The position numbers were made by a program, and so were the translations under genes. A DNA stretch of 64,000 nt from Escherichia phage vb_EcoM-VR5, in the sequence record NC_028881.1; one strand, written 5' to 3'. Positions within the stretch are counted from its first letter, which is position 1; each line of letters opens with the position of its first letter. The notes below the pieces were generated by a model. It did no database searches. It was not told where the DNA came from and was given only the letters and a program-made list of their open reading frames with translations. Positions 26,220 to 30,587 of this stretch are shown one piece after another.

Positions 26220-28268
26220 TTATCTGAATTTTTCCGGAAGGGCATTGATATCAGTCAATGCACACAGGATTTTATCAACTTCGTTATCTGAAGCTTCTTT
26301 AGATTCTGTAAGGAACCCAGAGAAAGATAATGTTTTGTTTACTGGTTCCAACTTACCGGATTCCAAGAACAAATCACCGTCGTAAACTACTTCGCTTTCG
26401 GCGACGATACGGTCCAGGTCCATTACTTCACACTCTAACAAGAAACGGTTAAAGGATTTAGACAGGCTAGCCGTAGTGGTCTTGTTAACTCGCAGTGTAG
26501 TACCACGTGGCAACAGAACTTCAGCCTCTTCAGGGTATTCAGACAAACTACCTGGCATAATAACCTTAATCTTCTCAATACCACGAATAACAAATGAGAT
26601 ATCAATCTTAGAATTACCTTCGGTTTTCAGTGCATTAGTTACTGTCTGGTTAGCATCTTGTGAACGCCAATCATCAGAGAATGCATGACCATCAGTATAA
26701 GTAGACGAGAAGTCATCTAATGTGATACCCATACCATTGCCGGACATTTGTCCAGGAACGTTACTAAAAATGTTAGGCTTCAACGAAGTAGAAACATAGT
26801 TACGGAAGTAGAATGTACGGCCTGTAATATTGCGACGAAGAGTATTAGAATCACCACCCTGACCACGATAAACCGTAGTACCCTTAGGCAAAGTTACACC
26901 TTTAGAGAACGCGCTATCAAGTTTCTCAATTTCACCTTCAACAAACTTAATGGAAGTATCCTCATCAGGAGTACCAAGCAAGAACGTGTTAATATCATAG
27001 AACGAGTTCATACAATATTCTGATACAGCCTGTTTTTCTTCCTTGGTAAGGTCTGCTTCTGGTTCAACGTTCTGGGCCACTTCATACGAATTGGTAAAAA
27101 CATCATCAATCATCTGAGTAATAATAGCCATAGGACGTTGAAGAGCCTGGGCCTTAACATCTACATCTACCGAAGAACCTGCAGTAATTTCACGAACAAT
27201 TCTTTGCATGATTTCGTACGAGTTTGTAGTATCAAGATTTTTAAATTCTTCAGCCATCAATCTAACGATGTCAGAAGGGTAATTTCTGGTACGTAGCTTA
27301 CCTTTAGCTTCGGATAATGCATCCATTAAAGAAGATACTTGAGGTGATAAACCGGAACTAGACGAAATATTAATATAAGCCAATTCAGATTGGGTTTTCT
27401 TAGCAAAGGTCTTCATAGAGGCTTCAAATGATTCGAATTCTTTAGATTTCTTACCATCTGATTTATATAAAGGAACTTCGTCATCATACTTAGCAAAGAT
27501 TTTAGCAGTCTCTGCATCGGCCTCAATATTTTCAGGAGTAACTGCGTATTGAGCCGCAATAGTAGCACGAACGTTTAATTTAGTACGAGAGATAACAGCC
27601 TTATCGGTACGCTTTTCTTCAACCTGCGCTACAGAAGCTACAACGGCTTCAACCTTACTTACGGCTTGGCCAGTTTTCTTGGAAACATAAACTTCGCCAA
27701 CTTTAGAATCAACTTTAGTATAAAGGTCAGCATCAATTTCCGGCATGCCTTTGATGTCTTCGATATTCGCACCACGACGTACTAAAAGAACGTAAGTATG
27801 TTTACCGCTGAACTGGAACATATCATTAACAACTTTAAACTTACCACCTGTACGAGCCATGGCCAAACGAGCCAATACACGTTGTACAGTAGGACCCTTA
27901 CCTTTCATTTTCTTAGTAGGGAAACGGAACAGAACTGCATCCATTTTAAGTTTATTTACTTGTTCATATACCGTATCGAAAATAGTATTCAATGCACCAA
28001 GTGGGTCAGAACCAAGTCCACCTTTGAGTTCAGCCGGGGCACCTTTGCTTGACAAACTCATTAGAATAACATGAACATATTTGTCACCTGGCTTAACCAT
28101 TTTAACTGCGTCTCCTTGAGACGCATAAGATACCATACGAGCCACAAGGTTATCATTACCTGGTGCTTGGATAGAGAAAATCTGTGGGATACCGGAACCT
28201 GGTTTAAGATTTGTTACTGGATAGTTTTTAGCTGAATCACTATCAAAAACTTCGTTTAAATTTTCCAT
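26220..28268 (-). CDS. alt: Alt-like ADP-ribosyltransferase, copy A
   Basis: 682 aa, the T4 Alt size; C-terminal region carries an Arg (YRGQ), an STS (YVSTSL) and an E-x-E (EAEVLLP) motif. Confidence 0.85.
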   Translation of the reverse strand: MENLNEVFDSDSAKNYPVTNLKPGSGIPQIFSIQAPGNDNLVARMVSYASQGDAVKMVKPGDKYVHVILMSLSSKGAPAELKGGLGSDPLGALNTIFDTVYEQVNKLKMDAVLFRFPTKKMKGKGPTVQRVLARLAMARTGGKFKVVNDMFQFSGKHTYVLLVRRGANIEDIKGMPEIDADLYTKVDSKVGEVYVSKKTGQAVSKVEAVVASVAQVEEKRTDKAVISRTKLNVRATIAAQYAVTPENIEADAETAKIFAKYDDEVPLYKSDGKKSKEFESFEASMKTFAKKTQSELAYINISSSSGLSPQVSSLMDALSEAKGKLRTRNYPSDIVRLMAEEFKNLDTTNSYEIMQRIVREITAGSSVDVDVKAQALQRPMAIITQMIDDVFTNSYEVAQNVEPEADLTKEEKQAVSEYCMNSFYDINTFLLGTPDEDTSIKFVEGEIEKLDSAFSKGVTLPKGTTVYRGQGGDSNTLRRNITGRTFYFRNYVSTSLKPNIFSNVPGQMSGNGMGITLDDFSSTYTDGHAFSDDWRSQDANQTVTNALKTEGNSKIDISFVIRGIEKIKVIMPGSLSEYPEEAEVLLPRGTTLRVNKTTTASLSKSFNRFLLECEVMDLDRIVAESEVVYDGDLFLESGKLEPVNKTLSFSGFLTESKEASDNEVDKILCALTDINALPEKFR

Positions 28269-28271
28269 TAT

Positions 28272-30326
28272 TTACCCTTGGATGAATTTTTCTGGCATAT
28301 CATTAAGATTCATACATGATGCTAAAAGAGGTAGTACATCAAACTTAGTTGATTTTACAAATGAGTCAAAAGATACAGGGTTTTCGGTAGTATCGAAATC
28401 ATCTTGATACACAACCAATTCACCGGTTTCCATTAACATGTTTCCATCATATACTACTGACTCTTGAAGCTCATCTGATGTCATAACTTCGGCTTGAACT
28501 AATTTATTATTAGTTTTAGAAGTACCGTCGTTATAAGAAGCATCTGTTATTTTATTAATTTTGAGCATTAACCCACGTGGAAGAATAATTTCCATTTCGT
28601 TAGAAGGAGCAAGACCTGCACCAGGGAACACCACGTTTATTTTGTGAGCACCTGAAATAGCCCAACCGATACCAACTTGGTCGTCATTAGACTTAACAAG
28701 TCCTTCATCCGATTTGTCTATGGAAACATCTAAACGGACTTCATCAGGCAGAGTACCTACTGAAGCATCTGTCATCCAAGTACCAAAAATATTAGGATAT
28801 AAAGATGTAGATACAAAGTTTCTGAAATAGAATACCTTGTTTTTAACCATTGCTTCGTAAATAGGTGGAATCATTTTCTGGGAACGATACAGTGTAATTC
28901 CTTCTGGTAATCTATCACCATTTTTAAAAGCATCATCTAAGTTATCAATAGCTTTTTCGATTTCCGGGCCAGTCAAAATACTAGAACGAACTTCTGGATT
29001 GTATATACCTAAAAGTGCATTGTTCATATCTTCATAACCGGAACCAACATACTCACGGATACCACGTTTTTGTGCTGGAGTATACTGGGTTTCATCTCGG
29101 TTATCAACAATAGAGAACATTGTCCAACCGGCAGCCAATGCAAATCCACGAATTTCTTTTTTAATGACCTTAGTCTTAGCGACGTTCCAAGAGCTTTCAG
29201 ACAATTCCATGGCTACAGTATAATCTAAATTAGAATGTTTAGCAAAGAATTTTCCTAACCAGGCACCTTTATATTCTTCAAGAACTTCGTTTAGTACTGA
29301 AGCAAAACTGCTTAATGCATCCATAGACGTTATAGGCTTACCGTGGATTTTTTGGAATGCACGAACTTTAACATCATGGTCGACTTCTTTTATTTTGCTT
29401 TTAGTTACTATTCCGCTATCGGCAAAGGCATCACCAACACCATTTATATTTGTAACTGTATTAAGAACACTTTCTAAAGAAAACGATGCGGTAGAAATAG
29501 TAGATAATTCGTTAGATTGTGGAATAAGTGGCGCGGTAGCAGGTTTACTTAATTCGGATGCAGAAGCTTCAAATTTGGTAAACATAGGTGTTTCAAAACG
29601 CGCTGATTCTAAGGATTGCGACATAGCAATAGCACGTCGTGAAATCTTGGTCTTAGTAATAACGGTTTTATCTGTACGGCGTTCTTCAACCTTAGCAATA
29701 CTACCTGCAATAGCGGTTTCTTTAGTAACCTGTACACCTTCTTTTTTGCTTACATAAACATCACCAACATCAGAATCAACTTTAGTATAAAGTTCAGCAT
29801 TAATTTCTGGAATACCTTTGATGTCTTCAATATTAGCTTGTTTACGGACAACTAAAATATAAGTATGCTTGCCAGTGAATTCATACATGGCAGGAACTAC
29901 TTTAAAACGGCCACCAGTTTTCTGTGCAACTAAACGTTGAATAAGGCGCTGTACGATAGGACCTTGTCCTTTCATTTTCTTAGTAGGAAAACGGAACATA
30001 ACCGCGTCCATACGAAGTTTTTTAACTTGCTCGTATACTACATCAAAAATGGTATTAATAGCATCAATAGGAGTTGCTCCTAAGCCACCTTTTAATTCGG
30101 CAGGGGCGCCTTTGGCTGACAGACTCATTAAAATAACGTGAGCATATTTGTCGCCTAATTTAACTTGTTTGATAGCATCACCTTCAGATGAATATGACAC
30201 CATACGTGCTACCAATTGAGACTCAACGCCGCCAATCTTCCAAATCTGTGGTACTTTAAGTTTCGGGTTCAAGTTTACAGTAGGTAATGTACCTTCAGAC
30301 TCGAACACTTCATTTAATTGGGTCAT
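28272..30326 (-). CDS. Alt-like ADP-ribosyltransferase, copy B (tandem paralog)
   Basis: 684 aa; N-terminal half near-identical in pattern to copy A; C-terminus has LYRSQ, FVSTSL and EMEIILP motifs. Confidence 0.85.
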   Translation of the reverse strand: MTQLNEVFESEGTLPTVNLNPKLKVPQIWKIGGVESQLVARMVSYSSEGDAIKQVKLGDKYAHVILMSLSAKGAPAELKGGLGATPIDAINTIFDVVYEQVKKLRMDAVMFRFPTKKMKGQGPIVQRLIQRLVAQKTGGRFKVVPAMYEFTGKHTYILVVRKQANIEDIKGIPEINAELYTKVDSDVGDVYVSKKEGVQVTKETAIAGSIAKVEERRTDKTVITKTKISRRAIAMSQSLESARFETPMFTKFEASASELSKPATAPLIPQSNELSTISTASFSLESVLNTVTNINGVGDAFADSGIVTKSKIKEVDHDVKVRAFQKIHGKPITSMDALSSFASVLNEVLEEYKGAWLGKFFAKHSNLDYTVAMELSESSWNVAKTKVIKKEIRGFALAAGWTMFSIVDNRDETQYTPAQKRGIREYVGSGYEDMNNALLGIYNPEVRSSILTGPEIEKAIDNLDDAFKNGDRLPEGITLYRSQKMIPPIYEAMVKNKVFYFRNFVSTSLYPNIFGTWMTDASVGTLPDEVRLDVSIDKSDEGLVKSNDDQVGIGWAISGAHKINVVFPGAGLAPSNEMEIILPRGLMLKINKITDASYNDGTSKTNNKLVQAEVMTSDELQESVVYDGNMLMETGELVVYQDDFDTTENPVSFDSFVKSTKFDVLPLLASCMNLNDMPEKFIQG

Positions 30327-30362
30327 AATAATTCCTCTCTAATAACCTTATTTATGCCATAA

Positions 30363-30376
30363 AGGGCCCGAAGGCC
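30363..30376 (-). terminator. Hairpin GGGCC-CGAA-GGCCC upstream of Alt copy B
   Basis: GC stem with tetraloop between the small ORF 30381..30587 and the alt-B start. Confidence 0.45.
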
Positions 30377-30380
30377 CATA

Positions 30381-30587
30381 TCAGTATAGTGGAACAATAG
30401 GGACTAAAGTTCGATATAGCTCGAAATTATATCCTTTTTCATATTTTGATAACTTTCCTGCAAATACTTCAAACTCATCACGCGAGTTGAAATCAAGGAT
30501 AGTCGTTGTTACAGAGGTAGAAACTTCACCAGAGCCGTTACCACCTTGACGTTGTGCAATAATAACTAATTCTAAATAAGCTTTCAT
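30381..30587 (-). CDS. Hypothetical small protein
   Basis: About 68 aa from the ATG at 30585-30587, which abuts the ligase stop; the track ORF extends further upstream. Confidence 0.4.
   Translation of the reverse strand: MKAYLELVIIAQRQGGNGSGEVSTSVTTTILDFNSRDEFEVFAGKLSKYEKGYNFELYRTLVPIVPLY

Follow-up and report, generated by a model that had tools for sequence, protein, structure and literature searches.

Two tandem, modular Alt-like ADP-ribosyltransferase genes in the coliphage vB_EcoM-VR5

Two intact alt genes side by side

Two adjacent genes for Alt-like ADP-ribosyltransferases were found in a 64,000-nt stretch (hereafter the window) of Escherichia phage vB_EcoM-VR5 (NC_028881.1), a coliphage of the genus Dhakavirus. 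Both lie on the minus strand, as do all features below unless noted: the upstream paralog, Alt-U (28272..30326, 684 amino acids [aa]), adjoins alt.1 and the gene 30 DNA ligase, and the downstream paralog, Alt-D (26220..28268, 682 aa), adjoins alt.-3 and gene 54. The two tandem open reading frames (ORFs) described in a first-pass annotation of this DNA were thus borne out to the exact coordinate. Comparison of the window ORFs with the annotated T4, JS98, RB14, and Merlin loci revealed the same conserved order, gene 30 - alt.1 - alt - alt.-3 - gene 54, and the window structural genes were ~92% identical to those of the Dhakaviruses JS98 and JS10. The phage collection searched held 50,697 records, the VR5 genome record not among them, and its best DNA matches were at ~92%. 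Alt-U and Alt-D are exact matches to YP_009205892.1 and YP_009205891.1 of the VR5 RefSeq, both named "Alt-like RNA polymerase ADP-ribosyltransferase"; the two paralogs are real, already annotated for VR5, and long known.

The two proteins are paralogous to each other (BLASTP, 38% identity, E 1e-139) and each aligns with T4 Alt over its full length. Alt-U covers positions 2-674 (E 4e-253) and Alt-D positions 2-672 (E 2e-224) of the 674 in PHROG 802, "Alt-like RNA polymerase ADP-ribosyltransferase," and the Pfam family ADPrib_exo_Tox (PF03496; cut-off 23.4 bits) matched residues 378-616 of Alt-U and 404-614 of Alt-D, the two scores being 80.8 and 109.1 bits. Precomputed annotations on all homologs and on an 81%-identical Alt-D ortholog include both PF03496 and Tevenvirinae_ADPRT (PF26846), the latter of which the local Pfam copy did not report for Alt-U or Alt-D. 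NCBIfam returned no match for Alt-U, Alt-D, alt.1, or alt.-3, and a phmmer search of Alt-U against PDB sequences returned none at E <= 0.01. At 684 and 682 residues, neither protein has the ~200-residue single-domain architecture of ModA and ModB, no homologs of which were found in the window.

Annotations of tandem alt genes exist for JS98, JS10, and IME08 (alta/altb) and for Bp7 (alt/alt'); RB14 carries alt and a full-length downstream paralog called alt.-2 (685 aa), and Merlin has two copies. In LHE83 (OQ561750.1) we found three tandem full-length alt genes, which encode 694, 681, and 707 aa and differ from one another in cassette type (locus stretches L007, 8992-13125, and L009, 1-1665), so that copy number at the locus ranges from 1 to 3. 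The N-terminal domain alone was detected by tblastn at 1,820 places in 1,200 phage records, with three such places in KIT01. Nolan et al. (2006) reported that 44RR carries a full-length alt duplication (ORF187c) and T4 the alt.-1/alt.-2 remnants, and that a terminator upstream of alt is conserved (PMC1524935); a 2010 review of the T4 family does not mention alt. The T4 annotation describes alt.-1/alt.-2 as an old duplication of the start of alt. These remnants (L003, 5066-5451) are 95-98% identical to residues 1-116 of the RB14 downstream paralog (L006, 2007-4064), which indicates that the T4 reference strain recently lost ~570 codons of a second alt. The first-pass remark that T4 has one alt gene here is incomplete in passing over the remnant of a second. 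The single intact alt of T4 is the exception, two or three copies being common.

Conserved anchors and exchangeable cassettes

Alt-U begins, after a short predicted propeptide, with an N-terminal alpha/beta domain (residues 7-235; 29622..30308) that is 93% identical to the upstream copy of JS98 (JS98-U) and 44% identical to T4 Alt, followed by a cassette of the T4-type class A1 that comprises a helical middle region (residues 236-414) and an ADP-ribosyltransferase (ART) domain (residues 415-622; together 28461..29621). Its ART domain is 81% identical to that of T4 and 58% to that of JS98-U. The corresponding N-terminal domain of Alt-D (residues 7-235; 27564..28250) is 94% identical to the downstream copy of JS98 (JS98-D) and 66% to Alt-U, and precedes a cassette of the rare class B1 (helical middle 236-404 and ART 405-624; 26397..27563). 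The first-pass annotation had called the N-terminal pattern of the two proteins near-identical; the strings it quoted are present, but that wording overstates an identity of 66% over residues 1-232. Its description of the enzyme halves as strongly diverged agrees with our alignments, in which Alt-U and Alt-D are 9% identical in the middle region and 34% identical in the catalytic domain.

Sliding-window comparison of Alt-U showed a mosaic that is JS98-like at residues 1-235 (86-95% identity), T4-like from ~236 to ~610 (up to 92%), and JS98-like once more over the final ~70 residues. The same pattern recurs among relatives: T4 and RB14-U, which belong to one genus, are 99% identical in the N-terminal domain and 94% in the tail but 31% in the middle and 64% in the ART domain, whereas dhaeg-U and RB14-U, from two genera, are 46% and 52% identical in the N-terminal domain and tail but 65% and 83% in the middle and ART domain. 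Likewise, JS98-U and dhaeg-U are 99% identical in the N-terminal domain and 98% in the tail but 34% in the middle and 62% in the ART domain. For Alt-D and JS98-D the values are 94% (N-terminal domain), 18% (middle), 41% (ART), and 43% (tail). In the downstream gene of Bp7, the N-terminus is of the downstream type, with 91-93% identity to Alt-D and JS98-D, and the cassette is T4-type. Nucleotide homology to JS98 breaks off at 26231, within Alt-D some 10 nt from its 3' end, and picks up again at 27580 (residue ~230); a second gap, at 28953-29625, falls in the Alt-U middle region, and these breakpoints are sharp.

Domain trees (bootstrapped on Kimura distances, with p-distances for the saturated middle region) were incongruent between cassette and anchor regions. 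The grouping of Alt-U with T4 and Bp7 alt', and that of dhaeg-U, metagenome-U, RB14-U, LHE83-1, and Bp7 alt, each received a bootstrap of 100 in the ART and middle trees and 0 in the N-terminal and tail trees. Groups by lineage and gene position were recovered in the N-terminal and tail trees with bootstraps of 91-100, including 100 for the N-terminal group of Dhakavirus upstream copies and 91 for the grouping of the Alt-U tail by lineage. The tail that follows lineage corresponds exactly to the T4-type propeptide region; in downstream copies, the Alt-D tail travels with the cassette (43% identity to JS98-D and no JS98 DNA homology over 26232-27579). The alt genes are thus modular: both the first ~235 residues and the C-terminal propeptide track lineage and gene position, and the helical middle and ART domain form an exchangeable cassette common to several genera.

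The Alt-D cassette is rare, with a best match of 34% identity among the phage records; matches of 94% and 81% came only from two metagenome proteins (P0001 and P0002). For the Alt-U cassette, protein-level identity to Tequatrovirus Alt does not exceed 64%. Recent horizontal transfer of this T4-type cassette from a sequenced Tequatrovirus was ruled out by that best match and by a dS against T4 of ~2, and the same values indicate that the cassette types are old alleles.

Gene conversion readily affects tandem repeats, and the likeness of the two N-terminal domains might in principle stem from a recent event of this kind instead of from functional constraint. Upstream and downstream copies of Tequatrovirus do group together in the N-terminal tree (bootstrap 94), as old concerted evolution could yield. 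However, the N-terminal domains of Alt-U and Alt-D share 65% nucleotide identity with saturated synonymous sites (dS 1.45, dN/dS ~0.2), and saturation was equally evident between the copies of VR5, JS98, and RB14 (pS 0.64-0.66, dS 1.45-1.62, dN/dS 0.17-0.23). This saturation indicates that the duplication is old and that the N-terminal likeness is held by selection on the protein; we therefore rejected recent conversion, which is hardly credible as an explanation.

Catalytic residues, selection and predicted processing

Alignment of both copies to T4 Alt, ModA, and ModB showed that the Arg, S-T-S, and E-x-E motifs noted in the first-pass annotation are kept in Alt-U and Alt-D alike, with no catalytic residue missing from either. 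The residues are R481 (28884-28886), S506, S508, E577, and E579 (28590-28598) in Alt-U and R468 (26865-26867), S493, S495, E581, and E583 (26520-26528) in Alt-D. The Arg, Ser-x-Ser, and Glu-x-Glu columns were invariant in an alignment of 7 sequences and then in one of 27. ModA E165 aligns with Alt-U E579 and Alt-D E583, and the substitutions ModA E165A and "Alt E577A" have been shown to abolish ADP-ribosylation in vivo (PMC11404850); the published E577 of Alt is probably the second Glu, numbered E576 in the NP_049811 translation and so offset by one. Foldseek searches with the Alt-D ART model returned the toxins Vis, C3bot, Certhrax, CDTa, and VIP2 (E 1e-6 to 3e-5, probability 1.00), and a sequence-profile search matched the same set (Vis, C3, Certhrax, CDTa, VIP2) with E-values down to 5e-8. 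We set aside, as stretched and unreliable, a profile alignment that paired the Alt middle region with the N-domain of CDTa, Iota Ia, and VIP2, the model being all-helical there. The ARTT loop reads LAPSNEME in Alt-U and LSEYPEEAE, with an aromatic residue, in Alt-D. Judged by these motifs, both copies appear to be catalytically competent R-S-E mono-ADP-ribosyltransferases of the arginine type.

The deposited RB69 Alt (P0119, 695 aa) is scrambled over the catalytic Arg and S-T-S (aligned to Alt-U ~473-540), with flanks that match JS98-U well. Two frameshifts that compensate for one another appear to be the cause, reflecting a sequencing error or else an Alt that is catalytically dead.

Both copies are under purifying selection. 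The dN/dS was 0.05 for the Alt-U ART domain against T4 and 0.03 for the Alt-U N-terminal domain against JS98, and for Alt-D it was 0.10-0.21 in every region against the 81%-identical ortholog on a 173-kb metagenome contig (dS ~0.8). These values bear on whether Alt-D is catalytically dead or in decay and heading for the loss seen with alt.-1/alt.-2 in T4, where the close match of the remnant to RB14 alt.-2 shows that a downstream copy can disappear. A long disordered insert in its ART domain and a non-canonical P3 residue at its C-terminal cleavage site would also fit decay. Against this, the 682-codon ORF is intact with every catalytic residue present, eleven near-identical Alt-D sequences were found in independent metagenome assemblies, and the low dN/dS along its whole length indicates a functional gene. 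We thus dismissed pseudogene status for Alt-D on the grounds of its ORF, catalytic residues, and dN/dS, and consider decay very unlikely.

In T4, the prohead protease gp21 removes 6 N-terminal residues of Alt (after ITE-6) and 63 C-terminal residues (after LTE-619) (PMC5694885; PMC9026906). By alignment with ITE-6, residues 1-6 are a predicted N-terminal propeptide both in Alt-U (MTQLNE; 30309..30326) and in Alt-D (MENLNE; 28251..28268), each ending in L-N-E6; the [L/I]-x-E motif at residue 6 is present in both copies, with E6 invariant, and by analogy with T4 both may be cleaved there. At the other end, the predicted Alt-U propeptide (residues 623-684; 28275..28460), 84% identical to JS98-U and 53% to T4, follows a canonical L-Q-E622 that aligns with LTE-619 and after which cleavage would be expected from the motif. 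The Alt-D tail (residues 625-682; 26223..26396) follows V-A-E624, the Glu of which is invariant in 46 sequences. The first-pass annotation took the shared N-terminal pattern as consistent with a common head-packaging domain, a label that is unproven. The two propeptides are the only segments known to be removed from T4 Alt in the prohead (PMC5694885), and the N-terminal domain of ~230 residues stays in the mature protein.

Expression signals were detected upstream of Alt-U. A terminator-like GC hairpin, GGGCC-TTCG-GGCCC followed by TTT (30364..30377), lies between alt.1 and Alt-U and is kept in T4, RB14, Merlin, JS98, and LHE83; a terminator upstream of alt has been predicted in 5 of 6 T4-like genomes (PMC1524935). 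Approximately 23 nt upstream of the Alt-U start is a late-promoter-like element, CATAAATA (30349..30356), found by eye and by comparison with relatives and differing by one mismatch from the T4 late promoter TATAAATA; exact TATAAATA occurs at that place in T4, RB14, and Merlin, and the C variant CATAAATA in all Dhakaviruses examined. The Shine-Dalgarno sequence of Alt-U is GAGAGGA (30333-30339). Only a 3-nt spacer (ata; 28269..28271) separates the Alt-U stop TAA from the Alt-D start ATG, and a Shine-Dalgarno-like AAGGG sits within the end of Alt-U. This TAA-nnn-ATG junction is kept in JS98, dhaeg, LHE83, the 173-kb metagenome contig, and RB14. The promoter-like element would fit late expression of the alt genes, and the tight junction suggests a single late transcript with translational coupling of Alt-U to Alt-D.

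Next to Alt-U, alt.1 (30377-30569 in the window; probably from ATG at 30587 to a stop at 30381) encodes 68 aa between the ligase gene and Alt-U; a program-listed 90-aa ORF starting with TTG at this place runs into the end of gene 30, and its length is probably overstated. The VR5 alt.1 is without nucleotide homology to that of JS98 or dhaeg and is common to LHE83 and the 173-kb metagenome contig, where its counterpart carries Pfam PF24647, Phage_blade. It is a further replaced module directly beside the alt cassettes. Plus-strand ORFs of 63-120 aa within the alt genes (26476-28074 and 29395-29757) are antisense by-products without support as genes.

Proposed role and comparison with known systems

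We consider it likely that Alt-U and Alt-D are tandem, modular, T4-Alt-like enzymes that are made late, packaged in the head, and injected, and that have at least partly different targets. Gene structure, homology, catalytic residues, modular phylogeny, and purifying selection are the observed part of this reading; when the genes are expressed, whether the proteins are packaged, cleaved, and injected, and how their activities and targets differ are the inferred part. By homology with T4 Alt, both proteins would be made late in infection, built into the prohead core, and trimmed by gp21 at both ends. They would then be injected with the DNA to modify host proteins as the next infection begins. 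Their cassettes belong to old types that recombine between genera, Alt-U carrying the T4 type and Alt-D a rare type of the "RB14 alt.-2" class. T4 Alt is present at ~40 copies per head, and the Alt homolog of Morganella phage MP1 has been detected in virions by mass spectrometry.

Several points weigh against this reading. The activity, packaging, and targets of the VR5 proteins, and of class B Alts generally, are all extrapolated from T4 Alt. The C-terminal motif of Alt-D, V-A-E, has Val at P3 in place of Leu or Ile, and the promoter-like element is CATAAATA instead of the consensus, a search for exact TATAAATA having found none near the alt genes. AlphaFold2 modelled full-length Alt-D with only moderate confidence (pLDDT 75.5, pTM 0.70) and with a 40-residue disordered insert in the catalytic domain (residues 505-546). 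Furthermore, the trees are neighbor-joining distance trees of 27 sequences, short of a full recombination analysis, and the monophyly of the entire class B has weak support (bootstrap 53).

The idea that two injected enzymes could modify different host targets is plausible on sequence grounds given the differing ARTT loops, helical regions with almost no relation to each other, and the age of the cassette classes. Alternatively, the second copy could be redundant, sharing its host targets with the first (RNA polymerase alpha Arg265, for example) and only raising the enzyme dose. Catalytic motifs and overall architecture are alike in both copies, T4 copes with one intact copy of a non-essential gene, and the variable copy number among relatives suggests that extra copies are dispensable. 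Yet identity between the cassettes is 9% in the middle region and 34% in the ART domain, the ARTT loops differ, synonymous saturation makes the duplication old while both copies remain intact, and both cassette classes are under purifying selection across genera, which would be unexpected for a plain dosage copy. We therefore regard dosage as improbable and favor at least partly different targets for Alt-U and Alt-D.

We also entertain, more tentatively and as a rather doubtful extension, that the alt locus is a polymorphic injected-effector system and that the N-terminal domain is GNAT-like, making the Alts two-headed injected enzymes. The AlphaFold2 model of the Alt-D N-terminal domain (pLDDT 87.8, pTM 0.87) gave weak GNAT-like fold matches in a structure search; in the literature searched, no paper was found to describe an Alt with a GNAT-like N-domain. 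Iyer et al. found GNAT and ART domains to be frequent neighbors in injected polyvalent phage proteins, with no such claim for Alt. If this were so, the lineage-specific anchors (N-terminal domain and C-terminal propeptide) would fit any cassette to the phage's own head, and the helical and ART cassettes would supply different host-target specificities, possibly with counter-defence roles. The rare downstream cassette of VR5 would then have a target not hit by T4 Alt, and the N-terminal domain would be a cofactor-binding or enzymatic domain of GNAT type, beyond a packaging handle.

Since tandem alt genes are widespread and already annotated in VR5, the view of T4-like phages is unchanged. The points added here, namely that cassettes are exchanged between conserved anchors, that the VR5 downstream cassette is rare, that T4 has a truncated second copy, and that the N-terminal domain is possibly GNAT-like, are modest extensions. 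The recent loss of most of a second alt from T4 means that T4-based work has covered just one of at least two old Alt classes. We found no experiments on a downstream-class (class B) Alt in the searched literature; this alt.-2/altB-type enzyme appears uncharacterised, and its targets are a directly testable question. The split between cassette and anchor points to the parts that probably carry target specificity and virion incorporation, respectively, and is useful for engineering T4-type heads as protein-cargo carriers.

Compared with known systems, the VR5 proteins are closest to T4 Alt (gpAlt, NP_049811.1), a head-packaged and injected NAD:arginine mono-ADP-ribosyltransferase of the same genomic position and length. 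They share with it a four-part architecture, the R/S-x-S/E-x-E residues, and the positions of the N- and C-terminal gp21 motifs. Identity between T4 Alt and Alt-U is 81% in the ART domain, 44% in the N-terminal domain, and 53% in the C-terminal propeptide, and T4 holds the alt.-1/alt.-2 remnant where VR5 has a second intact copy. The catalytic core of T4 ModA and ModB also aligns with that of the VR5 Alts (ModA R72/ModB R73, the Ser motif, and E163/E165), but these are stand-alone enzymes of ~200 residues that lack the N-terminal domain, helical region, and propeptides and are made after infection instead of being injected. The tandem layout of VR5 is that of JS98, JS10, IME08, Bp7, RB14, Merlin, and 44RR. 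VR5 joins position-specific N-terminal domains that are 93-94% identical to those of JS98 to other cassettes: the Alt-U cassette is T4-type, unlike the JS98 or dhaeg types, and the B1 cassette of Alt-D, at 18% (middle) and 41% (ART) identity to JS98-D, is otherwise known from metagenomes only.

More distantly, C3bot, Vis, Certhrax, CDTa, Iota Ia, and VIP2 have the same catalytic-domain fold and motifs as the VR5 Alts, and in these R-S-E toxins as in Alt the ARTT loop ends in E-x-E, typical of arginine-specific enzymes. The toxins are 14-19% identical to Alt and are secreted, whereas Alt is delivered via the phage head and tail; unlike them, Alt has its own N-terminal domain, a helical region, and ends trimmed by the prohead protease. 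A capsid-targeting sequence has been proposed as the route by which T4-like phages load varied proteins into the capsid (PMC9026906). T4 IPI-III and polymorphic toxins resemble Alt, by analogy only, in combining a conserved delivery or packaging part with an interchangeable payload. The Alt locus differs from polymorphic toxins in being without an immunity gene, and where IPI-III have a targeting peptide of 10-20 residues, the anchors of Alt are a folded domain of 235 residues and a C-terminal propeptide.

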